DNA of 64,000 bases from Synechococcus sp. (lineage in GTDB: Bacteria > Cyanobacteriota > Cyanobacteriia > Thermostichales > PCC-7336), in the NCBI GenBank assembly GCA_051439605.1, contig JBFRWN010000082.1:28100-92099 (forward strand). The letters run 5' to 3'. Below, one piece after another: positions 24,315-48,869 of this stretch (the first letter of the stretch is position 1; every line of letters starts with the position of its first letter). Made by a program: the position numbers and the translations under genes. Under the pieces are notes generated by a model. The model was given only the letters and a program-made list of their open reading frames with translations, ran no database searches and was not told the origin of the DNA.

Positions 24315-24358
24315 ATCGAGCAATCTAGATCGGACAATCATTTTGCAAGTATCGGGTA

Positions 24359-25279
24359 TTGGAAGTTTTGATTCACTCGGAATTGGGGGATCGTATTACG
24401 CAATCGGTGGCGATCGGCATCATGGGGGGCAGCGGTCTTTACCAAATGGCGGAGTTGAAAGACGCGGAAGAGGTCTCCATCTCTACTCCCTTCGGAGACC
24501 CGTCAGACAGCTTTCGTATCGGCAGCCTCAATGGTGTAAGGGTGGCGTTTCTCGCTCGACACGGCCGTACCCACAGCCTCTTACCCACCGAAATCCCCTT
24601 TCGGGCCAATATCTACGCCCTCAAAACCTTGGGCGTGAAGTACTTGGTGTCTGCCTCCGCTGTAGGCTCTCTCCAGGCAGAAGTCGCACCGCTGGATATG
24701 GCGATCCCCGACCAGTTCATCGATCGCACCCGCCATCGAGACGATACCTTTTTCGGGGACGGAATTGTGGGTCACATCAGCTTTGCAAATCCAGTGTGCA
24801 GCCAGCTCGCCGATGTCCTCGCTGCATCTGCCAAAGCCGCTGCTCCCGAAACCATCCGGGTGCATCGCGGAGGCACCTACGTTTGTATCGAAGGTCCAGC
24901 ATTTTCCACCTTGGCTGAATCGTTGCTGTATAAGAGCTGGAATGCAGATGTCATTGGTATGACGAATTTAACCGAGGCAAAGCTGGCCCGCGAGGCAGAA
25001 ATCGCCTACGCCACCCTGGCACTGGTAACCGACTACGACTGCTGGCAAACCGATCGGGAAGCCGTTTCTGTCGAGATGGTGATTGACAATTTGCACAAGA
25101 ACGCGGCTCACGCTCAAACAGTGCTGCGGGAGGTGGTGCAGCGGTTGGGAGATAACCCCTTTGTGTCCGAGGCTCACGATGCACTTAAATTTTCGATTTT
25201 GACAGATTTATCAACGGTCAATGCGGAGCATCTGGCCAGGTTAGATGCCATTTTGGGGAAGTATTCGCCTGCAGCATAG
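24359..25279 (+). CDS. mtnP: S-methyl-5'-thioadenosine phosphorylase (start uncertain)
   Basis: [36 protein letters not shown] and TDYDCW motifs. Confidence 0.95.
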
Positions 25280-34319: not shown

Positions 34320-35696
34320 CTACTTAATTGTAAACTCTTGTGAAGAAGAAACTTTATCGAACGGTTTAGCAGGAAGAGGCTGATTGTTAAAGCTAGGATG
34401 CCGAGCATCAATTTGATGAGCTTTTTTGACGATTGAGTTAAAGCGAAGGTTGGTAAGTTCTAATTCTCTAAAAATTTTCTGTGGGTCAAAAAGATGGGTT
34501 TTTGGCAGCTTTTTGCCCATTTCTTTGAGGACTAAACCGACAGGTACATTAATCTCGTCCTGGAGTCTGAGGTAGTGGGCAAAGACTGGAGCGAAAGCAC
34601 TAATAATCGAGCCTATTCCGCTTCGAGGTTGATACCAACCGATATAATATAATCCCTTATAGTCATCAAGGAAAGAGTCTCCATAGCATTGGACTACCGA
34701 GCCTTGAACTCGTTGAAGTTCTGGGGGTAAAAATGGATAAGCAACATAGTAACCAGTGGCACAAACGATCAGATCGAATTCTTCATGGCTTCCATCAAGA
34801 AATTCCACTGACCATCCATCTAAACTACGTATGCCTGGTTTGGGAATAATGCGACCGTGTTTGATGTAGTAAGGAACTTCATTATTGATAGTGGGGTGTT
34901 TTTCAAAAATTCGATGCTTAGGTTGGGGAAGTCCGTAACTTTCGTGCTTTCCAAAAGTGAAGCGGATTAGTAGGTAAGTCATTAGACGTTGATACCAGTC
35001 TGGACTCCTCCCCTTTTTGCTTAAATCGGCCACAGGAATACCCGCAAAGGTTTTAGGAATAAACCAAACCGACTCTCGCATACTTAAGACACATTTAGCT
35101 CCCACGCGAGCAGCTTCCGCAGCTATGTCACAGGCTGAATTTCCTCCACCGATTACTAGAACTCTTTTACCAAGAAGTTGTTCGGGTCGTTTATAATCTT
35201 TAGAATGGATGATTTTCCCATTGAATTCACCCTGAAAATCAGGAAAACGCTTACACCAGTGATGACCATTACACATCACTACACCTTTATAAATACGTTG
35301 TTCTTGGTTGGCGAAGGTTACTTCCCAGAGATTCTTTTCCACTGGTCGCACATAGGTGACTTTGCGGTTGAGTTCAATAGGTTCCCACAAATCAAAGCGA
35401 TCGGCAAAAGCATTAATATAATCCCACATATTCTTCCGACTAGGGAAGTCGGGATAATCTTCTGGCATGGAAAAATTTGTAAACTGAGTAACCTTACGGG
35501 AGGAGATAATATGAGCAGTTTCGTAAACTCCATGATACCAATTTCCACCTATTTCATCGCTGGCATCAACTTGATCATAGAGAATACCGGCTTCTTTAAG
35601 AGCCTGAGCTATACCTAGTCCGACAAAACCAGCCCCGATAATGAGTTGCTTGTGGGCTGTTACCCGTATCTTTTGATTGTTAACAGAGTTACTCAT
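34320..35696 (-). CDS. Flavin-containing monooxygenase (class B)
   Basis: GAGFVG, FNGKIIHSKDY (FMO fingerprint), GGGNSA and ATGY motifs. Confidence 0.92.
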   Translation of the reverse strand: MSNSVNNQKIRVTAHKQLIIGAGFVGLGIAQALKEAGILYDQVDASDEIGGNWYHGVYETAHIISSRKVTQFTNFSMPEDYPDFPSRKNMWDYINAFADRFDLWEPIELNRKVTYVRPVEKNLWEVTFANQEQRIYKGVVMCNGHHWCKRFPDFQGEFNGKIIHSKDYKRPEQLLGKRVLVIGGGNSACDIAAEAARVGAKCVLSMRESVWFIPKTFAGIPVADLSKKGRSPDWYQRLMTYLLIRFTFGKHESYGLPQPKHRIFEKHPTINNEVPYYIKHGRIIPKPGIRSLDGWSVEFLDGSHEEFDLIVCATGYYVAYPFLPPELQRVQGSVVQCYGDSFLDDYKGLYYIGWYQPRSGIGSIISAFAPVFAHYLRLQDEINVPVGLVLKEMGKKLPKTHLFDPQKIFRELELTNLRFNSIVKKAHQIDARHPSFNNQPLPAKPFDKVSSSQEFTIK

Positions 35697-35708
35697 TTAG
35701 ATTGACTT

Positions 35709-36512
35709 TTAATTTACTAAAAATCGGTTACTCACCCAGTTAAACAATCTGGGGAAATATTGCTTGAGAATGTGAATCCTATTGGCCATCTTGTCGGGAA
35801 ATACGTGAAGTTGATTACGCATAATTCCTTTAATGGTTTTTTCCATGACTTTCGCTGGGTCAGTTGCCAAATGTTCAGGGAAATCTTCCATTCCTTGAGC
35901 TAGTGTTCCATAACGTTCCGACTGAAGAATTGGTGTACGACTAAAAAAAGGATAAACGGCTGTAACTTTGACATTATAGGGTTTTACTTCATTCCAAAGT
36001 CCTTCACTAAAACCACGCAAGCCAAATTTGCTTGTAGAGTAGTGAGTCATCCCCGCAGGAGCGATCCAACCTGCTAGAGAAGAAATATTAACAATGTGTC
36101 CTTGGTTACGCTCAATCATATCGGCGACAAAAAGAGAACTTAACCGCATTGGGGCTAATAAATTGACCTGCATCAACTGTTCCCATTTATCGGGAGGAAC
36201 TTCGTCCATACGACCAAATAATCCTATACCGGCATTGTTAATCAAGATATCAATAGGTATGTCTAATGCTTTTACTTTAAGGTAGACAATCTCGCATCCT
36301 TCGCGATGAGAAAGATCGCTCTCAATACAAGCAATGATTTCTCCTGTAGTCACTTCACTTTTGATTTGAGAAGCGCGTTTATCTAGGATAGCTAGATCGA
36401 TGTCGGTAAGAATTAGACGACCACCAGCTTGTAATAATTGGCGAGTGAGTTCTTGACCAAAGCCTCCTGCTGCACCAGTAAGGACTATTACAGCTTGATT
36501 GAAATCAGTCAT
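35709..36512 (-). CDS. Short-chain dehydrogenase/reductase
   Basis: TGAAGGFG, NNAG and YSTSK motifs. Confidence 0.92.
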   Translation of the reverse strand: MTDFNQAVIVLTGAAGGFGQELTRQLLQAGGRLILTDIDLAILDKRASQIKSEVTTGEIIACIESDLSHREGCEIVYLKVKALDIPIDILINNAGIGLFGRMDEVPPDKWEQLMQVNLLAPMRLSSLFVADMIERNQGHIVNISSLAGWIAPAGMTHYSTSKFGLRGFSEGLWNEVKPYNVKVTAVYPFFSRTPILQSERYGTLAQGMEDFPEHLATDPAKVMEKTIKGIMRNQLHVFPDKMANRIHILKQYFPRLFNWVSNRFLVN

Positions 36513-36561
36513 TGTTACTAAATTTTGTGATTGTCTCTTTGATTGCTTATTTGCCTATCCA

Positions 36562-37530
36562 TTAAATCTTAGGAGACTGAAGCACTGCCCATAGCAATAG
36601 AAACCAGGGCACTTTAATATTAGGTATCAACCAGAGATGTTTTCTTAGTGATAAAAAAGTAAAAGGAATCAGAAATCGAAGGGAACGTAAAGAATCAGGG
36701 CGAGTGCCATTTTGGTCGACAAGATTATATTTTTCAGCAAGTTCAGCAACAATCTGAACTTTGCCCGTATATTTCATTATATTTGGCTCAGTAGAAAGAG
36801 CCGCAATAACTCTACCTGTTAGTAATGGAGTTTCCCAGTTGAAACCATCAGAAAAGCTTTTCTTGGCATCGCTTTCATTCATTTGCTGAGCAAAATTAGT
36901 CATATGCTCTGTTGCTACAATTCCTGGCCAAAGAGAAATAGAAGCAACGTTATCTGGTCTTAACTCGGAGGCCATATCTGCCACCAATCGATCGCAAGCT
37001 GCTTTTCCTGCGCCATAAGCCGCACCAAAGATATAAGACATACCGCCCCAGGAAGAGATGGTAAAAATAATTCCCCGTTTCTGTTTAGTCATCATGCGAG
37101 CAGCATAGACGCTGGTAATATAGTGACTCCGAAGACCAACATTATTAACCGCATCCCAAAGAGTAGGTTCAGATTGCCAAAAGGGCTTACCATAGGCATT
37201 TCCAATTGCCTGTACTCCTGAAAAAACATTGTTAACTAACAAGTCAAGCTGTCCATTTTGTTCATCCTGAATACGATTAAAGAGTAAACGTACTTTCTCG
37301 TCATCGCTATGGTCTACTTGAACTGGAATACACTTACCACCCGCTTCTTCAACAGCCAATTGGGTTTCCTGTAGACTACCTGAAACTTTATCACTCACGT
37401 TAGAACGATTCAGACTACGACCGGTAATATAAACAGTTGCACCAGCCTCACCCAAGCCCATGGCAATTCCCTTTCCAATACCCCGCGTCGCCCCCGTTAC
37501 TAATGCTACTTTTTCCTTAAGGTCTGACAT
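36562..37530 (-). CDS. Short-chain dehydrogenase/reductase (DHRS1-like)
   Basis: TGATRGIG, VGLRSHY, YGAGKAA and SLWPG motifs. Confidence 0.9.
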   Translation of the reverse strand: MSDLKEKVALVTGATRGIGKGIAMGLGEAGATVYITGRSLNRSNVSDKVSGSLQETQLAVEEAGGKCIPVQVDHSDDEKVRLLFNRIQDEQNGQLDLLVNNVFSGVQAIGNAYGKPFWQSEPTLWDAVNNVGLRSHYITSVYAARMMTKQKRGIIFTISSWGGMSYIFGAAYGAGKAACDRLVADMASELRPDNVASISLWPGIVATEHMTNFAQQMNESDAKKSFSDGFNWETPLLTGRVIAALSTEPNIMKYTGKVQIVAELAEKYNLVDQNGTRPDSLRSLRFLIPFTFLSLRKHLWLIPNIKVPWFLLLWAVLQSPKI

Positions 37531-37611
37531 AATTGCTTGAGGATGCCTATCGAGTACAGTTTACACTGATGTTTGATGTAAGACTATTTGACTATACAAA
37601 AGCATTTTGAA

Positions 37612-38838
37612 ATGTCTCAACTCAACTTATTAGAAATTTCTTTGTTCTTGAGGGTAGCCTCCATACTCTTAAGTATGTTGGGATTCTTTCTCAGTCTTTG
37701 GATAGTTATTCCTGCTCCTACTTTCGCTTTACTTCCTCTTGGAGTGGGTGCGCCAGAAGTTAGCCCTTGGTTATTTATCATGAATGCGAGCGCGCTTCTG
37801 CTAACCGTTATGGTTTACAAAAGTTGGTTGTCTACTCTGATTATCATCTGTAGTTTACTCGGGCTAATCTTGAGTCTACTGCCTGCGATCCAGTTACCCG
37901 CTGCCAATAGGAGATTTACCGCCGAGATAGAAACAGTTTTAGGTGCAGACTATTTACAAGCTGTTCCTCAAGCTTTACGAACCCAAATACGTCCCAAGCC
38001 ATTTGCGATCGTAGATGTTTTTCGGGGCATTCCGATCGAAGAGGAGATTCGCATTGAAAGAGGTATTATCTTTGCTAGTCCCGATCGAGTCGATCTCAAA
38101 CTAAACGTTTATCGACCTCTGCCTCAAGGAAAATATCCAGCCCTTATGATAGTCTACGGCGGAGCTTGGAGACAAGGCAATCCTGATGCCCATGATAAAT
38201 TTAGTGCTTACATGGCAGCCCAAGGATACTCGGTGATAGCAATTGATTATCGCCACGCACCCAAGTATAAGTTTCCCGCTCAGCTTGAGGATGTAGAAGT
38301 CGCTTTGCAGTATATTCGAGATCGTGCAGATGACTTTGAAGTTGATATCGAAAAGATTGCGATCGTGGGTCGCTCGGCAGGGGGTCATCTAGCTTCTCTG
38401 GCTGCCTATCGGCAAAATGCTTTTCCTTTTCGAGCGGTGGTGAGCTACTATGGGCCGGTTAATTTGACAGAGGGATACTACGATCCACCTGTCCCTAATC
38501 CCATCGATACCCAAACCGTACTGAAAAACTTTTTAGGAGGAACTCCCGAAGAACTCCCCGACCTTTATCGACAAGCATCTCCCATCAACTATTCTAGATC
38601 TAATCTTCCTCCTTCTCTACTAGTATATGCAGGTCGCGATCACCTAGTGCAGGCGAAGTTCGGACGACAGCTATACAAGAAGCTAAAGTCAGTCGACAAT
38701 CTTGCTGTTTGGCTAGAAATTCCTTGGGCGGAACACGCCTTTGATACAGTTTTTTCTGGAATTAGCAATCAACTGGCTTTATATTACACTGAACGCTTTT
38801 TGGCATGGGCTTTAAAATCTTCTAATATGCCACTATAA
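37612..38838 (+). CDS. Membrane-anchored esterase/lipase (HSL-like alpha/beta hydrolase)
   Basis: Three N-terminal TM segments; YGGAW, DYRHAP, GRSAG and D...HAF catalytic motifs. Confidence 0.88.
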   Translation: MSQLNLLEISLFLRVASILLSMLGFFLSLWIVIPAPTFALLPLGVGAPEVSPWLFIMNASALLLTVMVYKSWLSTLIIICSLLGLILSLLPAIQLPAANRRFTAEIETVLGADYLQAVPQALRTQIRPKPFAIVDVFRGIPIEEEIRIERGIIFASPDRVDLKLNVYRPLPQGKYPALMIVYGGAWRQGNPDAHDKFSAYMAAQGYSVIAIDYRHAPKYKFPAQLEDVEVALQYIRDRADDFEVDIEKIAIVGRSAGGHLASLAAYRQNAFPFRAVVSYYGPVNLTEGYYDPPVPNPIDTQTVLKNFLGGTPEELPDLYRQASPINYSRSNLPPSLLVYAGRDHLVQAKFGRQLYKKLKSVDNLAVWLEIPWAEHAFDTVFSGISNQLALYYTERFLAWALKSSNMPL

Positions 38839-39242: not shown

Positions 39243-40007
39243 TTAGAGTGAAGGTAAACGAATGACAGTGCGCGAGGACGCTTGATAAAGGGCGTTAAGG
39301 TCGATCTCTGTCACGTCCTCAGCCACTTTATCTAGCACCAGCTGACCCCCCCTCAATCCCAAAATGCGATCGCTGTAGTCCCTGGCTAACGAGGCTTGGT
39401 GCAAGTTACAGAGCACCGTCATCCCCTCCCGGTCGCAAAGGGAGCGCAATAGTTCTAGTACGAGGCGGGCAGATTCGGGGTCCAAGCTGGATATGGGCTC
39501 ATCCGCCAAAATGATGCGGGCTTTTTGTGTCAGGGCGCGGGCGATCGCCACCCGCTGTTGTTGACCTCCCGAGAGGCGATCGGCCCTTTGAAAGGCTACC
39601 TCCAGCAGTTTTACCCGCTCTAATGCCGCGAGGGCATCCCGCTTGAGGGATTGCGGAAACTGGTTGGTTAGACAGCGCCACAAAGGTAATTCCGGCAGGC
39701 GACCGGCAAGGCAGTTCTCAAGAGCGGTACGGCGGCGTACTAGGTTGAACTGCTGAGCTACCAAGGCCATTTGCCTGCGGCTATCCCGGAGTTGCTGGGG
39801 AGAAACTTGGGTCAAATCGCGATCGCCGAACCAAACCGAGCCACTGTCAGACTTGAGTAACCCCAACAAACAGCGCATCAGGGTTGTCTTACCCGCACCG
39901 CTAGGTCCCAAAACGGCGGTGAAGGTGCGCGGCGCGATTGCAAAGCTCACCTCCTGCAACACCGGGCGATCTCCATACAGTTTGCTCAACCCCATCACTT
40001 TCAGCAT
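39243..40007 (-). CDS. phnC: Phosphonate/phosphite-type ABC transporter ATPase
   Basis: GPSGAGKTT, QQFNLVRR.TALENCLAGRL, LSGGQQQRVAIARAL, DEPISSLDP and CNLHQ motifs. Confidence 0.9.
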   Translation of the reverse strand: MLKVMGLSKLYGDRPVLQEVSFAIAPRTFTAVLGPSGAGKTTLMRCLLGLLKSDSGSVWFGDRDLTQVSPQQLRDSRRQMALVAQQFNLVRRRTALENCLAGRLPELPLWRCLTNQFPQSLKRDALAALERVKLLEVAFQRADRLSGGQQQRVAIARALTQKARIILADEPISSLDPESARLVLELLRSLCDREGMTVLCNLHQASLARDYSDRILGLRGGQLVLDKVAEDVTEIDLNALYQASSRTVIRLPSL

Positions 40008-40067
40008 GGCCTAATGCCTTTCTCCTGTTTCAGCCAACAGCCCTAGGTCCCACAATGACTACCCGAC

Positions 40068-40937
40068 TTATTTCAAACGGTGACGCAGCCAAGCACTGAC
40101 CCCATCGATCGCCGTCACCATGCCTAGGATGAGCAGGAGCAAGGTGGTCAAGCGGCCAAAGTCCAGTAGCTTGAGGCTGACGGACAGTTCGTAGCCAATC
40201 CCCCCAGCCCCGACAATCCCTAAAATGACAGAGGAGCGCACGTTCACTTCCCATAAGTACAAGCTAATTCCCACTAAGGTGGGAATTGCCTCAGGTAAGA
40301 CCGCAAATGCAATCGTGCGCCAGCGATCGGTACCGGTAGCTTCCATGGCCTCCAGCGGTTCTGCGGGCAAGGTCTCTATGGCTTCTGCATACAGCTTGGC
40401 CATCGAACCCGTGGTGTGACACATCACCCCCAAAACTCCGGCAAACGGCCCCAGCCCCACAACCGAGACAAAGAAGAGGGCAAAAATCGCCGTATCGATT
40501 CCCCGCAGCAGATTGAGGACGCTTCGAATGGGCCCCGCCAGCCAAGGGGCGGGGGTGATATTGCGGGCCACCACTAGCGACAGCGGCAGAGCCAAGGTAA
40601 CCGCCACCAGCGTGCCTACAATCGCAATCGCCAGCGTTTCCCAGGTGGCCATCAAGAAGGAGGGCAACTCCGTCCAGTCGGGGGGCCATAGCTCGGAAAG
40701 CCAGCGGGTGAGGCGGGGAATCCCCTCCACAAACTCACTGATGGACACTTCTGCCTGGCGGGCACTGGCTATCAATATGGCAAGCAGGAGAGCCGTCCAA
40801 AATCCCTGGCGCAAAAGGCGACCCACCCCACCATTGCGCCGCTGCTCTGCCGCCAAAATTGCATCGAGGCGATCGTCCAGCGGGCGATCGGGTAGTGGGG
40901 ATGTAGGAGGGGCAAAGGGCGGGAGCCTGAGGGTCAC
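40068..40937 (-). CDS. phnE: Phosphonate/phosphite-type ABC transporter permease
   Basis: ETLAIA, VGLGPFAGVLG, AKLYAEAIE and EVNVRSSVILGIVGAGGIG motifs; GTGA overlap with the upstream gene. Confidence 0.92.
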   Translation of the reverse strand: MTLRLPPFAPPTSPLPDRPLDDRLDAILAAEQRRNGGVGRLLRQGFWTALLLAILIASARQAEVSISEFVEGIPRLTRWLSELWPPDWTELPSFLMATWETLAIAIVGTLVAVTLALPLSLVVARNITPAPWLAGPIRSVLNLLRGIDTAIFALFFVSVVGLGPFAGVLGVMCHTTGSMAKLYAEAIETLPAEPLEAMEATGTDRWRTIAFAVLPEAIPTLVGISLYLWEVNVRSSVILGIVGAGGIGYELSVSLKLLDFGRLTTLLLLILGMVTAIDGVSAWLRHRLK

Positions 40938-41923
40938 TGTAACTTACCTAGGCTGGTGCCGGCATCGCGGATGGGTTGGTAGTTACTGCCATCGGAGGCC
41001 ACAAACCCGGTGTAGTTAGGGGGCAATAACGTCTCTGCCTCTTCCGTCGAAATGCTCACCAGTGCCTCTTGCAGTGCTGTTTTGATCTCGTCGGGAAGTC
41101 CCCCGCGCACCACGATCGGGTCGTTGGGCAATGGAGCTGACTGCCAGACGATCTTGAGATCGTCCCGTTCGATACGTCCGGTGCTGTCTAACACGTCCAG
41201 ATTGCGATCGTAGTCTGAGGCAATATCTACTTGGTCGCTGAGCACGGCGATCGCCTGGGCGGCGTGACTGGCCCCTTCGTTGTAGTCAAAAGTAGATTTG
41301 GGATCCACCTCAAGGCGCAGAAATTCAGCGCTGGGGATCAACCATCCTGAGGTAGACCCGACATCCGCCAGACTGAGTTTGAGCGGTTCCTCTCCAGTTT
41401 CGCTGAGGGAAATGGCTTCTTCAATCGAGTCAAAAGGGGCGTCTGCCTTCGCCATCAGAACCGAGAAATAAATCGGCTGTTCGTTATATTTCACTGTGGC
41501 GATCGCCTCTAGGGAAGGTTCGTTGTGTTCCGCGAGCACGTATCCCCAAGGCCCCAACCAAGCCACATCCAGCGTACCGGAGCGCAGAGCCTCGGAAATC
41601 CCAATCCAATCTTCGGTGACCACAACTTTGGCCTCTACACCAGCGGCAGCAGCAATTTCTTCAAACAGCGGCTCAAACTGAGCCCGAGTTTCGTTGGGGG
41701 TGGGGAAATAGGGACCAACGCCAAACTCTAACACTTCCAGCTCTTCTTCTTTCTGGGAATCGGCAGCTAGAGTACTGCTGTCAGGAGCCTGAGTGGTTGG
41801 GGAACCACTGCAACCCACCAGGACTACCGCCGCCACGAGTCCGGTGGCAATCCTCCCCCAAGCAGAAGAAGGTTTAGAGTTTGCCAAATTTAGTTGAAAC
41901 ATATGCACCTTACGTTCGTTCAC
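40934..41923 (-). CDS. phnD: PhnD/PtxB/HtxB-family substrate-binding lipoprotein (HtxB-like)
   Basis: Lipobox VLVGC; WLGPWGYVL, ATVKY, STSGWLIP, SDYDR and LPND motifs. Confidence 0.88.
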   Translation of the reverse strand: MNERKVHMFQLNLANSKPSSAWGRIATGLVAAVVLVGCSGSPTTQAPDSSTLAADSQKEEELEVLEFGVGPYFPTPNETRAQFEPLFEEIAAAAGVEAKVVVTEDWIGISEALRSGTLDVAWLGPWGYVLAEHNEPSLEAIATVKYNEQPIYFSVLMAKADAPFDSIEEAISLSETGEEPLKLSLADVGSTSGWLIPSAEFLRLEVDPKSTFDYNEGASHAAQAIAVLSDQVDIASDYDRNLDVLDSTGRIERDDLKIVWQSAPLPNDPIVVRGGLPDEIKTALQEALVSISTEEAETLLPPNYTGFVASDGSNYQPIRDAGTSLGKLQ

Positions 41924-42031
41924 ATGATGAAACAGCGATCGCGCGCAACTCCAATTCCGGATCGCTAAGCCTTCCAGCCAACCCCTACAATCTGCATCGT
42001 CTGTCTCCTAACAGAGCGCGGCAGGAATTCC

Positions 42032-42943
42032 CTAAACGGCAGAGGCAGCGCTAAACGGGGGGGCTGGTAGCCGCTGACGCACAGCCTGTTCCTGCGGCGG
42101 CAGGATTTCCGCACAAGTGGTCCAAACCCCCGAACGCAAGCTATCGCAAAACTCTTCTGGCAACCCCTCAGCTCGCATTGCTGCAATTGCCGCCGAGGTG
42201 TCGTAGTCCATGGCCACAAACTTGGGCTGTGGAGCTTCCGCCCCTGCCGGAAACTCCAACAGGGCGAAGTAGACGTGGGGTTGACCGTCGTGGGGAGGGC
42301 GCCCCAGGACCCCTACATTGCACCAGAAGCCATTGCCCACTTTGCGCGTCCAGGGCAAACCGGAATGGGTGGCGCAAATTCCCTGTACCCCAAATTCATG
42401 CAGCCACCATTCAATCCGGGCATTCTCCGTTTCCGTTTCCCAGACAAACTCGTTCACCTGTTCGGGGCTGCCGTGGCACAGCAGGATCTTTGCCGATCGC
42501 CATTGAATTTCAATCAGTTGGGGCAGTTGTTTCAACCAGGTGCGATTGGCTGCAGAGGTGTTGGCCACCGTGTAGTCGTAGCTAATTTGAGCAAACTCCC
42601 GATCTCGGGGGTTAGTATAACCGCAGCCGCAATCCCGCTCGCCATATCCTACGGCTCGATCGTAATTCCCCTGCAGGACGATGGTGCCCGAGTCCCGCAG
42701 CAGGTCAATGGTGCGATCGGGAAAAGCCCCAAAGCCCCCCATGTCTCCCAAACAGAAACGGTGGCTAACTAAAGAGGTCTCGCTCAAAAATTGCTGTACG
42801 GCCATAAAGTTGCTGTAGGGTCCACCACAGAGGGCAATCGAAGTAGTGTCTTCTGGAATCGTCACCAGCAGCTTGCGCACCACCTCCGGCTGAGTCGGTA
42901 AAGTGCAAAGCTCGGTCGCAAATTGGTCAGTTGAGTTGGTCAT
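42032..42943 (-). CDS. Calcineurin-like metallophosphoesterase, GGPYSN variant
   Basis: CLGD, QGNYD, CHGSP, THSG and NVG motifs plus a DCGCGY insert; ATGA overlap with the arsS stop. Confidence 0.85.
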   Translation of the reverse strand: MTNSTDQFATELCTLPTQPEVVRKLLVTIPEDTTSIALCGGPYSNFMAVQQFLSETSLVSHRFCLGDMGGFGAFPDRTIDLLRDSGTIVLQGNYDRAVGYGERDCGCGYTNPRDREFAQISYDYTVANTSAANRTWLKQLPQLIEIQWRSAKILLCHGSPEQVNEFVWETETENARIEWWLHEFGVQGICATHSGLPWTRKVGNGFWCNVGVLGRPPHDGQPHVYFALLEFPAGAEAPQPKFVAMDYDTSAAIAAMRAEGLPEEFCDSLRSGVWTTCAEILPPQEQAVRQRLPAPPFSAASAV

Positions 42944-44031
42944 GCTTCCGTTGCCCCTCCACAAGAACTACCTGCCCCTGCCGTACAGCCAAAACAATGG
43001 CGGTCGGTGACAATCTGCCGTTCGGCAAACTGCTGCGGGTCAAAGTCACGAACGGTGGTGCGATCGCCATTTGACAACTGTGCCTCTAAATCCAGCATTT
43101 GGTTGAAATCGCAATCGAAAATCCGGCCATCCCAGCCAATCGACGCTGTATTGCGGCACATCAGGCCATCCACAGTGCCGGAATTAAAGGAATTCACCAA
43201 CAGCTCCATGTACCCCTGCAAATTGCCCGTTTCTTCCAGCCATTCCAGAAATCGGGAGATGGGCATGTTGTTGAGGGCAATTAAGCGATCGAAGGTCACT
43301 CCGTGATTTCGCTCTAAACCGCGTTTCCATTCGCGTTCTGCCTGCTGCTGGTCGGTGAATAAAAAGGCCCCCACCGGATTGGTCATGAGAGTCAGCCGTC
43401 TGTGGGGATTCCCCTGACCGTAGCCCACTTCATTCAGGCGTTTCAGCGCCTGAATGGATTTTTCGTAGGTGCCATCCCCCCTCTGTTTATCGGTGTTTCG
43501 CTTGCGGTAGTGGGGTAGCGAGCAAACAATTTCGACGTTGCGTTCTGCCAACCACTCGGGCAAGTCTTGCATCCCCGGCAGCAGCAATACGGTTAGATTG
43601 CAGCGATCGATGACATGCTTGCCGCGCTTCGCACATTCATTCACCAAATAACGGAAATGGGGGTTCATCTCTGGTGCCCCCCCCGTGATGTCCACTGTGT
43701 GAGCAGAGGTACGATCGAGGGCGGCCAAGCAAGCGTCCACCGTAGTCCGATCCATGTTTTCGCGGGTGCGATCGGGACCGGCGTCCACGTGGCAGTGGCG
43801 GCAAGTCATATTACACAGCTTGCCGATATTGATTTGAAAGATCTCTAGTTGGGTGGGGGTGAGGGGAAACCGATCGCAACTCTGCAACGCCGCCTGAAAA
43901 TCATCCACCTGTTTTGCCCTGGAGAGATCGAGCCTCTGCAAGTCATGCAATTGCCGTTCGGGGGATGCCAAGGGCGATCGTCTTCTCTGTAAAGAAAGAG
44001 TGCGCTTCGAAGTGCTCGTTTGCTGGGCCAT
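42940..44031 (-). CDS. arsS: Arsenosugar biosynthesis radical SAM protein (ArsS/DUF3641 family)
   Basis: CNMTCRHC cluster motif, DITGGAPE, NMPISRF, MCRN, DCDFNQML and C-terminal HCFGCTAGAGSSCGG. Confidence 0.9.
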   Translation of the reverse strand: MAQQTSTSKRTLSLQRRRSPLASPERQLHDLQRLDLSRAKQVDDFQAALQSCDRFPLTPTQLEIFQINIGKLCNMTCRHCHVDAGPDRTRENMDRTTVDACLAALDRTSAHTVDITGGAPEMNPHFRYLVNECAKRGKHVIDRCNLTVLLLPGMQDLPEWLAERNVEIVCSLPHYRKRNTDKQRGDGTYEKSIQALKRLNEVGYGQGNPHRRLTLMTNPVGAFLFTDQQQAEREWKRGLERNHGVTFDRLIALNNMPISRFLEWLEETGNLQGYMELLVNSFNSGTVDGLMCRNTASIGWDGRIFDCDFNQMLDLEAQLSNGDRTTVRDFDPQQFAERQIVTDRHCFGCTAGAGSSCGGATEA

Positions 44032-44187
44032 ATCAATGGTTGTTTTGTCGAAGATGAGCGAATGATGTTTTCCTAAAACGGGTTGGATACCTGGTGGAAC
44101 TGCCTGCTAGAAGCTGAGTCTTTCAATTATGTCGCTCTCCCATACCAACCTCTCCTGTGCAAATCTCTCCAGCTCGCCAGGGCAGGT

Positions 44188-44520
44188 CTACATCGTCAGC
44201 TGATTGACGCGATCGAGCATCTGCAAGCCGTGAATTAAGGAGGCCCCTCCGCGAATGGCGGTGGCCACATGCACCGCCTCGGTCATTTCCTCTAAATCCG
44301 ATCCTTGCTGCAAGGACTCCTTTGTATAAGCCTCGATGCAGTAGGGACATTGCACGGCGTGAGAAACCGCCAGTGCAATCAGAGCTTTTTCTCGCTTCGT
44401 CAAGGCAGCCTCCTCAAACACAGCCCCGTAATACCCAAAAAATTTCTCGGCCAGCTCGGGGTTACCTTCGCCAATTTGGCTGAAATTGGGGAGATGTTCG
44501 GCCTTGTAGTAATCGTTCAT
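44188..44520 (-). CDS. AhpD/CMD-family CxxC protein (arsenosugar-cluster peroxidase-like protein)
   Basis: KFFGYYGAVF, LTKREKALIALAV, AVQCPYCI and AIRGGASLIHG; directly upstream of arsS. Confidence 0.88.
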   Translation of the reverse strand: MNDYYKAEHLPNFSQIGEGNPELAEKFFGYYGAVFEEAALTKREKALIALAVSHAVQCPYCIEAYTKESLQQGSDLEEMTEAVHVATAIRGGASLIHGLQMLDRVNQLTM

Positions 44521-44655: not shown

Positions 44656-44700
44656 AAGCTACACCACACTTTGGTCTCAGGCCTGAGACGTTCCTGAGAG
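44656..44700 (-). promoter_or_regulatory. Candidate promoter/operator of the ahpD-arsS-phn unit
   Basis: Perfect 16-bp palindrome GTCTCAGGCCTGAGAC (44674-44689), CCTGAGA repeated 11 bp apart, and a -10-like TAGCTT on the minus strand (44661-44656). Confidence 0.45.
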
Positions 44701-44839
44701 TTTTCCAATCAATCCGCCACCCCCACAACAAGAATCACCCCCACCTAGTTAAAGGTAGAGGCGATCGAATAGAGCGACCTCGCTGCATTGGTTGCTAAAC
44801 GGTAGAGTTTGCAGAGCTAACTACTTTGCTCTAAAGACC

Positions 44840-47800
44840 TTACGGACAGGTTCTCACCCCCGACGTCCCCGCCACCGGCGAAAAGCCTGGGATATTAATA
44901 GTATTCAAGCTGTCGTTGTTGTCTGCACTCAAATCCGGAAGGGAAGTGAACCCAACGATTTCGACTGCTTGGGTAAAGCTCACGATGCTCAAGTCAAAGC
45001 TCGATGGGTCAGGAGTATTGCTGGTGTTACCAGATAAATCGATACAAATGTTGCCGCCATTACTTTCATTGAAGTAGAAACTACTGGAGTTGGACGCCAC
45101 AGTCACGATGTTATTTGAAACTGTTGCGCCAACATACGAATATCCATCGGAGCTGACCTGCACACCACTCGAATATTCATTGGTGGTTACGGTATTGCCA
45201 GTAATGAGAGTGTTGAGCAGGTATGTGTATCCACCTCCGGAAGTATTTCCTCCCTCTATCAAAATACCGTCAGAGTATTCCATGGTGGTCGTAATTGTAT
45301 TGCCCGTAATGACCGTGTTCTCAATAGTGGCCAAGCCATAGTTACTGCTCGCATACACACCTATTCCTGGCGACCCGTTACCGTTGGTGGTCACGGTGTT
45401 ACCGGCGATTGTCGTATTGTTTATCGATGCGGAAGCGTAGAAGTCTGATGTAGCCGCGACTTGTATACCGGGGGCGTCGACACCGTTAGTAGTTACGCTG
45501 TTGCCAGAAATCGTTGTGTTGTTGATTTCTACGAAAGCGTAGCCTGCATCGGCCACAACTTGAAGACCGGCAGAGTAACCACCGTTAGTCGTGACCGTAT
45601 TGCCCGTAATGACTGTGTCTTCGATGCTGGTCGAACCATAATAGATGTCTGCAAAAACTCCTATTCCTAGCGATCCGTAACCGTTGGTCGTCACGGTGTT
45701 ACCAGAGATTCTTGTATCGTTTATCGCCGTGGAAGCGAAGTAGGTGTTGGTTACAACTTCAATACCGGCGGAATAGTTTCCATTGGTAGTAACAGTGTTG
45801 CCAGAAATCGTGGTTTCATTAATATCGATAGAACCGGTATAAGCTCCATACGCTTCCACTTCGATACCCGAAACAGCTGTACTATCAGTTGTTACCTCGT
45901 TGCCCGAAATATTGGTTTTGCTTACTATCACATTGGAGTCATAGGCGGCAAAAAACTCAGCCGCAATACCCGCAGAAGTATATGTAGGCTCAACGTAGGC
46001 TCCACCCCCCCCTCCCTCAGTCAAGGTAATGGTATTGCCCGAAATAGTGCTGTTGGTGACGGTAATTTCAGCATCATAGTTGCCCGATCCCCTCAATAAG
46101 ATTCCATCTGCATAGATGCCAGAACCCTGAATGGAATTTCTGGAAATATCGGTCTCCCGCAAAACCATCTGCCCCTCGCCACTCAACAGGTTAATGGCGA
46201 TGCCAGCAGAAGAGCTCTGGCCGCTCGAAATACTATTGTTAATAATTGTCGTGCCATCTAAGGTCAATGACGCGGAATTTAAAGAGGTCTCTTCCGCCCC
46301 GCTCAAGATAGAGCCATTCAACTCAACGCCAGTTGCGTCCTCTACACCATTCGTTGAAATCGTATTGCCGGTAATGGTGGTTTGTCTGACTGTCACCTCG
46401 GTGGAACCAGCCGTACCCTCATAAGGTCTAGCGGATGCAATGATTTGAATGCCAACGCTGCTCTCGTTATCCTTACTGGTAATCGTGTTTCCGCTGATAG
46501 TTGTTCCAGTGACTGTGCTCGCACTTCTGTTGCTACCCGTGGGATTGATGGCAATAGCAGTGTTCCCAATACCGGTAAACCGATTGAGTCCGTTACCAGA
46601 GACCGAATTTCCCGTAACGGTCAGATTGTTGATATTAACCGAGCCACCATCTATGGCATACGCTGCTGTTGCAATACCAGCACCCGTTCCGCCACTAGCA
46701 GAAATGGTGTTTCCAGACACGGTCAGGTTATTAATGCTGGCCGAACCACCGCCATAGGCAGCCGCCGTTGTTACTATTCCAGAGCTATATCCACCACCAA
46801 CAGAAAGGGTATTTCCAGAAATGATGGCTCCGTTCAAGTCTGCATTCGTTTGAGAAATCTCGATACCAGCACTTCCAAAGAAGGGGTTACTCGTCAGCGA
46901 GAGGGTATTGTCAGTAATTTCGGCATTGGCGATCGCGTTATTTAGCTGAATGCCAGTGGCGTCAACCGTGTTGATTTTGTTGTTGGTGATGGTAAAGTCA
47001 CTTACCCCCTGCGCCAGCACCCCTGGATCGCCGGGGGAAGGTTGAGGGTCGATCTGCACATCCAGTTGAGGTTGGATATCAAACCCGGACAACACCGTTT
47101 GATTGCCCATGGTGACAGTCCCCACCACCAAAGGAAAATCACCATTGCCCGAAGTTGGCAACAATACATCTGACAGCGTTACGTCGCCAAGACCAGCAAC
47201 TTGCGCATCAATGAACTGCTGCGGTCCAGCAGATAATACCCGGACACCATCGGGGATGGTAAAGGCCGGAATGATGTCATTGCCTAGGGCGACAAACACG
47301 ATGTCGTTACCTTCCCCAGCTGTGGCATCCAGACCCTCCTGCACTGTGGCAAACGGATCTTCAACAGAGCCATCGCTGTTGCCCCCTGCGGTTACGTGGG
47401 TAAAGAACCACGGCTCACCGGTGTCGGGGTTGAGGGCAGGACCAGACGCCACCACCGTTTCCACATCCCGCTGGTGGTCCACCACCACGCTATCGATGCG
47501 GGCAACTGGGTCATCCAATCTGGCAAACACATCTCCAGCGGCGGCGATCGCCTCCCGTTCTTCTGCCGTAGGGGCGATCGCTTTAGGATCGGGCAGATGA
47601 GCGGTGACCCCAAAAAATACCCGCGTACCGAACACGTCATCCCCCTGCACCCCCACCCCAAACTCCATTCCTTCCACCGGAGTCAGGGCCAATCGACCGC
47701 GACCGCCAACCGCGCTGACGTCATCGCCACCCAAGTAATACAAACCGCCAAATAGTTCTAGATTGCCGTGGTCGTTCCAGCGGAAAATACTGCCTCCCGC

Positions 47801-48448
47801 CTCAACGTCAAAGCCCCCCAGCGCGACTTCACTCTCTTCCCAGATTGTGTTTTCAGCGGTGAGCTGCAGCGATCGCCCCTGAAATTCCGTATTGGTAATG
47901 CTAAAACCCGTTTCAAAGCGATCCGTCTGCTGCTTGGTGTCGCCAACCGGAATGTATCCGTTCGCGCGAATATCGAACTGCCCCAATCGTTCAAATCCAA
48001 AGCCAATTTGAGGAAAGACGCTTTCCCCGGTATCTCGGACATCTAGGGAAACATATCCCCCTAAAATGCGATCTCGTTCTTCGCTGAAATTGCGATAGCC
48101 AAAGAGTAAGTTTCCCCCCACTCGACTTTCATCATCAAAATCTATACGTAGCTTGGGATAGAGATAAAAGGTCGATCTGCCTGGTTGTTGCAGAATGGGA
48201 AAAAATGCATCGCCGGAAATAAACGCATCCGTTCCGCCGCTCTCAGAATCGAAGTTGCCTCGGAAGCGCGGACGTAACCTCAGCAATTCTGCAGATGTTT
48301 CCACCGTAAGGGTTTCGGCCTCTACAGGGCCCTCTTCCCGAGATTCATCGGTAATATCTTGGGCCAGACCAGACGTAAAAAACAGCGGTAAGTTCAGCAT
48401 TAACGTCAGGGCAAATGCTGGTGCAGTTTTCAGAATAGATCTGGTCAT
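44840..48448 (-). CDS. Large surface protein: N-terminal inverse-autotransporter-like beta-barrel plus right-handed parallel beta-helix repeats
   Basis: Signal peptide; amphipathic beta strands (GGNLLFGYR, FDIRANGYIPVG, GFDVEAG); DGSVEDPFATVQ; many ISGNTVTTN...SxGI repeats. Confidence 0.85.
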   Translation of the reverse strand: MTRSILKTAPAFALTLMLNLPLFFTSGLAQDITDESREEGPVEAETLTVETSAELLRLRPRFRGNFDSESGGTDAFISGDAFFPILQQPGRSTFYLYPKLRIDFDDESRVGGNLLFGYRNFSEERDRILGGYVSLDVRDTGESVFPQIGFGFERLGQFDIRANGYIPVGDTKQQTDRFETGFSITNTEFQGRSLQLTAENTIWEESEVALGGFDVEAGGSIFRWNDHGNLELFGGLYYLGGDDVSAVGGRGRLALTPVEGMEFGVGVQGDDVFGTRVFFGVTAHLPDPKAIAPTAEEREAIAAAGDVFARLDDPVARIDSVVVDHQRDVETVVASGPALNPDTGEPWFFTHVTAGGNSDGSVEDPFATVQEGLDATAGEGNDIVFVALGNDIIPAFTIPDGVRVLSAGPQQFIDAQVAGLGDVTLSDVLLPTSGNGDFPLVVGTVTMGNQTVLSGFDIQPQLDVQIDPQPSPGDPGVLAQGVSDFTITNNKINTVDATGIQLNNAIANAEITDNTLSLTSNPFFGSAGIEISQTNADLNGAIISGNTLSVGGGYSSGIVTTAAAYGGGSASINNLTVSGNTISASGGTGAGIATAAYAIDGGSVNINNLTVTGNSVSGNGLNRFTGIGNTAIAINPTGSNRSASTVTGTTISGNTITSKDNESSVGIQIIASARPYEGTAGSTEVTVRQTTITGNTISTNGVEDATGVELNGSILSGAEETSLNSASLTLDGTTIINNSISSGQSSSAGIAINLLSGEGQMVLRETDISRNSIQGSGIYADGILLRGSGNYDAEITVTNSTISGNTITLTEGGGGGAYVEPTYTSAGIAAEFFAAYDSNVIVSKTNISGNEVTTDSTAVSGIEVEAYGAYTGSIDINETTISGNTVTTNGNYSAGIEVVTNTYFASTAINDTRISGNTVTTNGYGSLGIGVFADIYYGSTSIEDTVITGNTVTTNGGYSAGLQVVADAGYAFVEINNTTISGNSVTTNGVDAPGIQVAATSDFYASASINNTTIAGNTVTTNGNGSPGIGVYASSNYGLATIENTVITGNTITTTMEYSDGILIEGGNTSGGGYTYLLNTLITGNTVTTNEYSSGVQVSSDGYSYVGATVSNNIVTVASNSSSFYFNESNGGNICIDLSGNTSNTPDPSSFDLSIVSFTQAVEIVGFTSLPDLSADNNDSLNTINIPGFSPVAGTSGVRTCP

Positions 48449-48869
48449 GATGGGACTCCTCACTCATGCCCGAGACTATCGAAGATGGCACTCTCTCCAG
48501 AGTTTTATTGCCAAGAAGTTAACAGTTTTTACGAACACTTTAAGTCACCTTAAAGGTTCGATATTTTATCAGCTGATTATTCCTTGTTTATACTTAGGAA
48601 CCCAGAATTGTTTTTACCAGTATCAATATAGAGATCGGTTCATATTTGTGCTGCATTAGCGTTCAAGACGATCGCGTCAGTCCCTCCAAACTTTGTTTCG
48701 TCAAGCATACGATCGCTGGTTTTTGCTCGTATCACTAACGCTGTTGTCATCTCTGTTACTACAGCACGGACGGGCGCTAAGGGAATCGCTCTATGCCAAT
48801 GGCAGAAGCAGCAGCTTAGGCTACCATCGCACGTAATGTCTTGACCTCCCCACCATCGGAGAATCCCCA

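Follow-up and report, generated by a model that had tools for sequence, protein, structure and literature searches.

A Car1-like gene and an HtxB-clade importer joined to arsS in Synechococcus suggest a route of dimethylarsenate salvage

Introduction

Arsenosugar synthesis is usually seen as a by-product of the detoxification of arsenic that leaks into the cell via phosphate transporters, and arsM mutants are said to make arsenosugars from DMA still. For cyanobacteria, an ArsM-ArsS pathway has been described (Cheng et al. 2021). The substrate reported for the ArsS family is DMA(III), which is adenosylated to DDMAA (PMC13598754). A different arsenic enzyme is Car1 of Rufibacter tibetensis (Shen et al. 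2024). Reported as a reductase of arsenate with a metallophosphoesterase fold, it has two essential cysteines, which are numbered Cys74 and Cys76 (PMC12124457).

Among importers, the closest described system is HtxBCDE of Pseudomonas stutzeri (5me4; PMC5700983, PMC6629693). In the binding pocket of HtxB, F158 and N128 block a third oxygen, while in PtxB a His and a Ser bond the third oxygen (PMC5700983). PhnD-family importers have already been suspected of carrying arsenic compounds. This applies to the "phosphonate" ABC transporter of the Streptomyces arseno-organic (bisenarsan) cluster (PMC4943196), and to the phnD of SAR11, which is reported to be induced 2-fold by DMA, a compound found at 0.6-8 nM in the North Atlantic (PMC6426599). 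In neither case is ArsS or a Car1-like gene part of the system.

The operon presented here is best read as a variant of the known ArsS arsenosugar pathway, with the joining of an importer and a Car1-like gene to arsS as the new element. It shares a full-length ArsS above the family cut-off and a TIGR04169 partner with the ArsM-ArsS pathway. It differs in that neither ArsM nor TIGR04282 was found, and in that the importer and the Car1-like gene stand where a source of DMA would be needed.

Results

The window, a stretch of 64,000 nt that was analysed as a whole, comes from Synechococcus sp. (GCA_051439605.1, contig JBFRWN010000082.1, positions 28,100-92,099), the genome of which is a draft of 143 contigs with 99.98% completeness. 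A preliminary description, made from the letters alone, had noticed six co-oriented and tightly packed genes, and this layout is real. All six ORFs are on the minus strand, ATGA at 42940-42943 joins arsS and the third gene, GTGA at 40934-40937 joins the genes of the binding protein and the permease, and the gaps, given as below 160 bp, measure 156, 108-129 and 60 bp. We infer that a single transcript covers the six-gene block.

The first gene (44188..44520, minus strand, 110 aa) encodes a CxxC protein of the AhpD/CMD family, which matches TIGR04169 ("arsenosugar biosynthesis-associated peroxidase-like protein") with 173.1 bits against a cut-off of 120. The CxxC motif is CPYC at residues 58-61, and the AhpD domain known from fusions with ArsM (NF041537) is matched weakly (E 1e-5). 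The arsS gene (42940..44031, minus strand, 363 aa) is present in a single copy in the genome, and its radical SAM product scores 419.3 bits against the TIGR04167 cut-off of 300. The CX3CX2C motif (C73/C77/C80) and the C-terminal cysteines C292, C307, C346, C349 and C357 are invariant in 22 of 22 aligned rows, and the Cys-rich C-terminal domain (DUF3641) is recognised by PF12345 with E 3e-51. The protein is 68% identical to an ArsS from an arsM cluster; a sequence search for a solved ArsS structure found none.

The third gene (42032..42943, minus strand, 303 aa) had been assigned the role of an esterase. The metallophosphoesterase fold is confirmed (the PF00149 score is 20.9 bits, below the cut-off of 21.5), but the protein lacks an intact five-motif two-metal centre of active calcineurin-like phosphoesterases: DxH is replaced by GPY (GGPYSN), the last His is gone (THSG), and the His of GNH is missing. 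An esterase is thus no longer the better reading of this protein, in which the metal motifs of a hydrolase are lost and a Car1-type CxC is kept. C105 and C107 of this motif, together with C64 and C277, are invariant in 120 of 120 homologs. The profile match to a homolog from an ars operon has a probability of 99.7 (E 3.5e-27), and in the alignment with this ars-operon protein, from Paraclostridium, C105/C107 fall on its Cys74/Cys76, the same numbers as those of the essential pair of Car1. Three of four distant plasmid homologs are located inside ars operons with arsR, arsC, acr3 or arsM, and the remaining one is found among arsenosugar-associated genes. A protein atlas places the third gene in generic metallophosphoesterase clusters only.

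The product of the third gene is thus like Car1 in the fold, the GD and GNYD motifs and the CxC (aligned through an ars-operon homolog). It is unlike Car1 in lacking DxH and the last His, in having gained a C-terminal WxxC, and in its association with importers and ArsS rather than with ArsR and efflux pumps. DxH and GHTH or GHSH are intact in all four aligned ars-operon proteins, but not in the third gene, and the loss from importer-linked reductases of metal-site residues that ars-operon homologs keep suggests another substrate. Judging from its sequence, we predict that the third gene product is an As(V) reductase rather than a hydrolase. The preliminary description had given As(V) reduction to the CxxC protein; if the Car1-like protein is the reductase, the CxxC protein is more likely a thiol redox relay.

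The importer consists of a substrate-binding lipoprotein of the HtxB clade (40934..41902, alternative GTG start at 41923, minus strand, 322 aa, lipobox LVGC at residues 28-31), a PhnE-type permease (40068..40937, minus strand, 289 aa; TIGR01097, 272.8 against 216.7) and a PhnC-type ATPase (39243..40007, minus strand, 254 aa; TIGR02315, 280.7 against 266.1). The binding protein passes TIGR01098 and stays below the PhnD equivalog TIGR03431 (168.9 against 261.1). Its best solved relative is HtxB (5me4, E 6e-59, about 40% identity), with a Foldseek TM of 0.81-0.84. In common with HtxBCDE, it has the fold, the W52 cap (here W99), the D206-R178 pair (D261/R233) and the Y97/T129/S130 oxygen site. The differences are three swaps in the pocket (F158 to His213, N128 to Ser183 and M18 to Tyr), a single permease gene, and the lack of htxA and ptxD at the locus. 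In a set of 120 homologs, the kept W52, R178 and D206 and the three swapped residues do not vary at all. The pocket thus regains the His and the Ser, and should accommodate an oxyanion of three or four oxygens no less well than DMA with its two. The W/S/H/R pocket set is found again in two Ciceribacter relatives, the genes of which have ptxD or a PhyH dioxygenase as a neighbour. In a tree of 29 binding proteins, branches among the proteobacterial rows are long and the Roseomonas protein does not group with the cyanobacterial clade, so that we do not claim an order of events.

The genes that would normally be expected as partners, arsM, htxA and ptxD, are not in the window, as the preliminary description had stated, and the genome search agrees. 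ArsM of three types was not found with queries that included the sugar type and the type of the relatives, and the best NF008823 (ArsM) score in the genome, 64 bits against 263, belongs to a MenG/UbiE. HtxA had no match, PtxD only matches of 28-32%, PhnZ was not found, and PhnJ was absent from a search that detected the E. coli positive control. TIGR04282 was not found either, so that later steps of arsenosugar synthesis may be incomplete. TIGR04283 (on contig C65), DUF547, TVP38 and MerA-like genes are located elsewhere in the genome, the gene of the MerA-like flavoprotein at 22857-24314 of the window.

A direct repeat, TCTCAG-N5-TCTCAG, with an 11-bp period (44683..44699, minus strand) lies 179 bp upstream of the first gene and is a candidate site for an OmpR-family regulator. 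When this genome is left out of the matrix, the site still ranks third in it. The repeat stands before all 4 reductase-ABC operons and before 17 of the 30 reductase-symporter loci (background 10/3183), and at 19 bits or more also before 6 of 13 arsS genes outside the training set (background 2/3142). In one genome (G264), it is found before both of two unlinked operons. As a peroxiredoxin-thioredoxin run has it upstream too, the regulon may be one of general stress. Between the operon and an upstream gene for a 1207-aa protein there is a hairpin of 14 pairs with a T-rich tail (44733..44766, minus strand), a possible terminator for which the evidence is weak, as terminator-like sites number 7 in the region and 7.0 on average after shuffling. 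A scan for sigma-70 promoters and terminators gave results at or below chance. A crude search for Pho boxes, with a consensus and one mismatch per half, found no match upstream or in two gaps, and 151 sites genome-wide.

The distribution was surveyed in 401 cyanobacterial genomes; evidence from outside the cyanobacteria comes from a few plasmids. ArsS is present in 321 of the 401 genomes and sugar-type ArsM in 144, and at least 177 of the 321 ArsS-bearing cyanobacteria are without sugar-type ArsM. The absence of arsM, which was part of the framing of the preliminary description, is therefore common. The ABC importer occurs in 19 of the 401 genomes, and most ArsS-positive, ArsM-negative cyanobacteria are without it. 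ArsS is found in 18 of 18 importer genomes, which means little on its own at an ArsS background of 80%. Close copies of the reductase flank the ABC genes in 9 of 9 cases and are missing from the other 9 of the 18 importer genomes, and 7 of the 18 importer loci have no arsenic-type neighbour. In the reductase family f28, an unrelated sodium:solute symporter is encoded directly downstream in 27 of 30 fetched loci, and the other three end at a contig edge. Wherever the contig allowed a look, the reductase gene thus accompanies an importer, either the HtxB-clade ABC system or the sodium symporter. A search of this genome and five others for the symporter, run without positive control, gave no match. 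Mutual exclusion of the importer and ArsM was considered but is not supported: 5 of the 18 importer genomes and 10 of the 39 reductase genomes contain sugar-type ArsM, compared to the 144 of 401 overall.

The preliminary description had allowed for a linkage unique to this strain, but the gene-neighbourhood survey found the same order in four more genomes (G635, G587, G432 and G581). The five full operons are all from one taxonomic order, and hence not independent. Of 30 genomes of this order, 7 have the importer, and these are also the 7 that have the reductase; each of them carries ArsS. Both are missing from all 22 genomes without ArsS. The eighth ArsS genome, G510, has neither, and carries an ArsM-like gene; such a gene is also present in the operon-bearing G635. 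An independent link is found in G083, where the gene just before that of the binding protein encodes an ArsS of a different clade. On a Roseomonas plasmid, the same importer and reductase are combined with genes for TIGR04282, DUF547 and ArsS-like radical SAM proteins. The radical SAM proteins of this plasmid and of a related locus (L022) align with ArsS over the N-terminal domain only and were not accepted as ArsS. Single-protein scans returned four close loci on genome contigs and two on metagenome contigs, and a search of 50% representatives gave 44 matches at 1e-30, a small family. The binding protein of the "phosphonate transporter" on plasmid pAQ7 of Picosynechococcus PCC 7002 is 69% identical.

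Discussion

We favour the interpretation that the operon salvages dimethylarsenate by import, reduction and ArsS adenosylation, in a cell without a found ArsM, because ArsS needs DMA(III) and no ArsM was detected in a genome that is 99.98% complete. We put the probability of this reading at roughly 0.55. The Car1-type CxC, the constant company of an importer, the joint occurrence in the order, the upstream repeat in common with arsS operons, the links in G083 and Roseomonas and the reports on DMA in the sea and in SAR11 speak for it as well. Dimethylarsenate made by other microbes would be imported by the HtxB-clade ABC system, and the Car1-like protein would reduce it to dimethylarsenite via C105/C107. 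ArsS would then add an adenosyl radical to dimethylarsenite, yielding DDMAA, the first arsenosugar intermediate. The CxxC protein would probably re-reduce the cysteines, perhaps with electrons from the MerA-like flavoprotein. The proposal of the preliminary description that salvage bypasses ArsM thus stands as the best-supported reading, with gene roles that need changing. The broader generalisation, that an importer (ABC or sodium symporter) and a Car1-like reductase, co-regulated with arsS, form a dedicated system for dimethylarsenate uptake and reduction, is more tentative, and we would not give it even odds. The fit of the pocket to three or four oxygens, the pocket residues in common with phosphorus-linked relatives, the co-presence of ArsM, the frequency of arsS without arsM and the lone importer loci are points against salvage.

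An alternative is that arsenate or monomethylarsenate is imported and reduced, and that either ArsS uses a less methylated As(III) species or an unrecognised methyltransferase feeds it. His213, Ser183 and Asp261/Arg233 would together suffice to bind three or four oxygens, arsenate is the substrate described for Car1, with ArsL there is already a radical SAM enzyme that acts on trivalent arsenic, and importer and ArsM are found together in 5 or 6 of 18 genomes. We nevertheless regard this alternative as unlikely: Acr3 was not found in the genome, which would make the deliberate production of arsenite risky, the reported ArsS substrate is DMA(III), and the lost metal-site residues of the importer-linked reductases suggest a substrate other than that of the ars-operon enzymes. 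That the module recycles a larger organoarsenical, such as an arsenosugar fragment or a DDMAA-type riboside, or another oxyanion, for example one of selenium, and that the Cys protein reduces the oxide, appears improbable. Related loci, including L022, also contain a kinase-like gene and further radical SAM enzymes, a sodium:solute symporter might accept larger solutes, and some family names bear "(seleno)" labels. However, a pocket of the HtxB type offers very little room and every capping residue is retained, ArsS makes ribosides and needs none, and a selenate-type binding protein is already encoded by a separate gene on contig C124.

A reduced phosphorus compound (phosphite, hypophosphite or methylphosphonate), imported for nutrition or for radical C-P bond formation, was the other proposal of the preliminary description. 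It has become weak, and we consider it quite doubtful. HtxB is the closest solved structure, with W52 and D206-R178 kept, plasmid relatives stand beside htxA-like, ptxD or phnA genes, and PhnJ is encoded elsewhere in 9 of the 18 importer genomes. We retain the proposal because the same pocket residues occur in the relatives that are linked to ptxD or PhyH. Against it, the Synechococcus genome is without PtxD, HtxA, PhnJ and PhnZ, its three PhyH genes lie within a glycosyltransferase/sulfotransferase cluster, PtxD occurs in only 1 of 18 importer genomes, and no phosphorus-oxidation gene was found near the importer in any of the 18 loci. Moreover, the crude search found no Pho-box-like repeat upstream, and the partner gene, from an ars-operon family, swaps between two unrelated importers. 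Chance adjacency of transporter and arsS, with the two working apart, seems very improbable. Genome co-presence is expected with ArsS so widespread, and lone importer loci and the shared origin of the full operons would fit, but a start/stop overlap couples arsS and the reductase gene, there are independent fusions in G083 and Roseomonas, unlinked operons carry the common upstream repeat, and presence and absence go together in the 30 genomes of the order.

If salvage is correct, the operon would provide a high-affinity transporter and a reductase for a methylated arsenical, and the marine methylarsenic cycle would gain a consumer. We can now name two candidate DMA transporters and one candidate DMA(V) reductase, and salvage is a possible answer for part of the gap between ArsS and ArsM in cyanobacteria. 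Some cyanobacterial "phosphonate transporter" annotations, including that of pAQ7, may not serve phosphorus. A dedicated importer and reductase, co-regulated with arsS, would mean that the arsenosugar products are wanted, and that many cyanobacteria take up arsenic deliberately, from the detoxification waste of other microbes, for arsenosugars or arsenolipids.

Gene order and conservation of the operon

Six co-oriented minus-strand genes lie where they were first described: a 110-aa CxxC protein (44520-44188; TIGR04169, 173 against 120 bits), arsS (44031-42940; TIGR04167, 419 against 300 bits), a 303-aa metallophosphoesterase-fold protein (MPE; 42943-42032), a binding lipoprotein (41902-40934), phnE (40937-40068) and phnC (40007-39243). 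The ATGA and GTGA overlaps were re-found in the sequence, and the gaps are 156, 108-129 and 60 bp. phnE and phnC passed their own family models; the binding protein passed only the broad TIGR01098 model and failed the PhnD model (169 against 261 bits). Among proteins of solved structure it is nearest to HtxB (E 6e-59; TM 0.81-0.84 for a structure model of pLDDT 89.5), which bears out the description of the importer as HtxB-like. The host is a cyanobacterium; further DNA runs with at least half of the window, besides a possible source, are marine-sediment metagenomes from two studies.

The binding-protein clade occurs in 19 of 401 sampled cyanobacterial genomes, host counted. A survey of the linkage between arsS and the importer, as the preliminary description had proposed, found the block repeated at four of the 18 other importer loci (genomes G635, G587, G432 and G581). 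The six-gene arrangement is real and conserved. MPE lies directly upstream of the importer at four further loci, two without adjacent phnC, and divergently after phnC at one; a second-clade arsS (40% identity) directly precedes the binding protein at one, an ArsR/SmtB gene is the neighbour at one, and seven have none of these. In the order (30 genomes), MPE and importer co-occur in the same seven genomes, all ArsS-positive, and neither is found in the 22 without ArsS; the remaining ArsS-positive genome, G510, has neither of the two and carries an ArsM-like gene. As the genomes are kin, this distribution is a pattern, not a test.

Beyond the cyanobacteria, on a Roseomonas plasmid, the arsenosugar-accessory genes TIGR04282 and DUF547, two radical SAM genes, a binding protein (43%), phnE, phnC and MPE form one run; one of the two radical SAM proteins is ArsS-like, in its N-terminal half only. 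Both radical SAM genes of this locus (L037:1844-14902, NZ_CP061178.1) were classed as non-ArsS, with none on the plasmid above the ArsS cut-off. A Coleofasciculus operon of the same ABC kind (L022:8296-15340) encloses a non-ArsS radical SAM enzyme of 276-295 aa; its other members are a porin of the phosphate type, a gene resembling APH/choline kinases and a sulfurtransferase in opposite orientation. On PCC 7002 plasmid pAQ7 (L041:9860-12603; binding protein 69%), in a laboratory strain, the transporter stands alone. NCBIfam lists an 'Rv1680 family SBP-like protein' as well as an 'Rv1681 family radical SAM protein'; the latter is the best model, under cut-off, for ArsS-like enzymes adjoining MPE, which hints, going by the family names, that mycobacteria may have a comparable pairing of binding protein and radical SAM enzyme.

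Just downstream of the operon, a block at 34320-38838 (flavin monooxygenase, two short-chain dehydrogenases, lipase; GC 40-44% versus 51%) is probably a separate acquisition. A secreted 1207-aa beta-helix repeat protein is encoded at 44840-48463 and an aspartyl beta-hydroxylase/sulfotransferase fusion at 48870-50765.

ArsS in the absence of ArsM

The host assembly (4.9 Mb, 143 contigs) is 99.98% complete, and the searches for arsM, ptxD and htxA recovered none of them. For ArsM, the best NF008823 match was a MenG/UbiE (64 of 263 bits), and sugar-type ArsM queries (protein and profile) and ArsM-like proteins of two congeners found no ArsM. The preliminary description stressed arsS without arsM. 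This holds for the host but is not unusual: ArsS is present in 321 of the 401 genomes and ArsM in 144, a count of the sugar type only, so arsS without sugar-type arsM is common among cyanobacteria. In the small-genome family f19, ArsS occurs in 39/40 genomes, and sugar-type ArsM and the HtxB-clade importer in 0/40.

Profile searches of the host for PhnJ, PhnZ, Acr3 and TIGR04282 were empty. Genes of the arsS-cluster type are dispersed (TIGR04283 on contig C65, DUF547 on C141, two TVP38 on C120), and three PhyH genes lie within an unrelated glycosyltransferase/sulfotransferase cluster. Away from the operon, a MerA-like PRK06370 flavoprotein (22857-24314), 42% to its counterpart in an arsM-arsS cluster, is followed by a gene judged by eye to be methylthioadenosine-phosphorylase-like; the pair (22857-25279) could possibly supply an electron donor and a nucleoside-processing step.

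MPE as a predicted Car1-like reductase

MPE had been proposed to process the product as an esterase. This is not supported: in its calcineurin-like fold, DxH has become GPY, GNH has become GNY and the final His has been lost, whereas C64, C105, C107 and C277 are invariant across the best 120 of 4533 homologs (E 1e-10 or better). Of 23 plasmid homologs, four were opened; three are in ars operons beside arsR, arsC, acr3 or arsM, and one belongs to the Roseomonas locus. According to PMC12124457, genes of this ars-operon kind are similar to Car1, an As(V) reductase of Rufibacter tibetensis in which Cys74 and Cys76 are essential. In the alignment with a Paraclostridium ars-operon protein (probability 99.7, E 3.5e-27 against the MPE profile), C105/C107 fall opposite a CxC at positions 74 and 76 of that protein. 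MPE is a predicted Car1-like reductase, by way of the Paraclostridium homolog. The ars-operon homologs retain DxH, whereas the importer-linked subfamily has lost it, from which we infer a changed substrate, possibly a methylated one. In several relatives (L132-L138) there is also a second pair of metallophosphoesterases, more distantly related, that has a CxC (CECSY/CDCSY) and an upstream GTPase-like gene; the MPE query found no such pair in the host.

Across the 18 importer genomes, each of the nine close MPE copies adjoins the ABC genes. In family f28, MPE occurs in 42/151 genomes, and among the best 30 of 43 matches a sodium:solute symporter is right downstream in 27, the other three ending at a contig edge. 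A single enzyme is thus partnered by either of two unrelated importers. A Marinobacter plasmid carries a relative of the f28 symporter (43%) next to the ArsS-like radical SAM sequence. In two genomes from another class of the phylum, MPE instead follows an ArsS-like radical SAM gene, with a porin gene downstream in one and no adjoining inner-membrane importer seen in either; there (L033:9129-12610, L034:9445-11140) MPE overlaps the stop of that gene, which is 31% to the Roseomonas one. The L022-type radical SAM gene (70%) immediately precedes the MPE-symporter genes in 3/30 loci: L139, L140, L145 (L172, L173).

A shared upstream repeat

The upstream-region alignment places TCTCAG-N5-T(C/T)TCAG 179 bp before the first operon gene. 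The pattern precedes 4/4 MPE-ABC operons, 17/30 MPE-symporter loci and 2/15 other importers, against 10/3183 upstream windows in the host; it was derived from nine regions, of which six match and are not independent. Under a matrix of 22 sites trained without the host, the window's repeat ranks third in the host genome, and scores of at least 19 bits precede 6/13 arsS genes outside training, compared with 2/3142 background windows. In G264, the repeat precedes both the MPE-symporter operon and an unlinked arsS-TVP38 operon, from which an OmpR-family pair diverges. Comparable pairs, or kinases, are found close to three further loci, and the host has a 74% ortholog of the G264 regulator (best model NblR, below cut-off). 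We infer that the repeat is a candidate site for this OmpR-family regulator. Since the host's top site precedes a peroxiredoxin-thioredoxin run, the regulon may exceed arsenic. That run (C128:38218-41354) comprises peroxiredoxin-like, thioredoxin and flavin-oxidoreductase genes, from which an ArsR-family gene diverges; in G038 a comparable redox run precedes the importer (L076). PMC4010505 reports that arsenic did not induce Synechocystis arsM, a result compatible with non-ArsR control.

Ligand and pathway

The module likely serves arsenic metabolism in one way or another. The most likely reading, at roughly 55%, is that the HtxB-clade importer would take up DMA(V), the MPE CxC would reduce it to DMA(III), and ArsS would adenosylate this to DDMAA, with the CxxC protein, whose family occurs fused to ArsM elsewhere, as electron relay. 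The proposed salvage bypassing methylation is retained as the leading reading; reduction, earlier ascribed to the CxxC protein, would pass to MPE C105/C107. A Synechocystis arsM mutant reportedly still makes arsenosugars from DMA(V). The ArsS reaction from DMA(III) to DDMAA is described in PMC13598754, and DMA(V) concentrations of 0.6-8 nM are given for the North Atlantic in PMC6426599.

Compared with the residue roles given for HtxB (PMC5700983, PMC6629693), the pocket retains the W52 cap, the paired D206 and R178, and Y97, T129 and S130 of the oxygen site, and has F158 changed to His, N128 to Ser and M18 to Tyr, all invariant in 120 homologs. F158 and N128 are described there as two of three pocket-shrinking residues that bar a third oxygen, and their replacement probably admits a ligand larger than hypophosphite. 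A methyl group and an oxygen at the third position would look alike in sequence. Arsenate or MMA is an unlikely alternative to DMA(V); a larger organoarsenical or a selenium oxyanion is less likely still. Two Ciceribacter proteins adjoining ptxD or a PhyH gene share the same W, S, H and R, so the pocket alone gives no pointer to arsenic. The suggested reduced-phosphorus import nevertheless seems improbable: one of the 18 other importer genomes encodes PtxD, and in the host the HtxA search gave zero matches and PtxD only dehydrogenases at 28-32%. All 18 genomes encode ArsS, and nine have PhnJ elsewhere. That importer and arsS are chance neighbours, as the seven loci without the linkage might suggest, is very improbable.

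ArsS, HtxB and Car1 are individually known. Searches of open-licence papers, which miss the main ArsS and Car1 papers, did not turn up their union, the two-importer swap or the shared repeat. Partial precedents are a 'phosphonate' ABC in a Streptomyces arseno-organic cluster and a SAR11 phnD induced by DMA (PMC6426599). Sugar-type ArsM occurs in five of the 18 other importer genomes, one more having an ArsM-like gene, and in 10 of 39 f28 MPE genomes (partial in two, none in 27); in some genomes, the module of importer and MPE is a supplement to ArsM, not a replacement.
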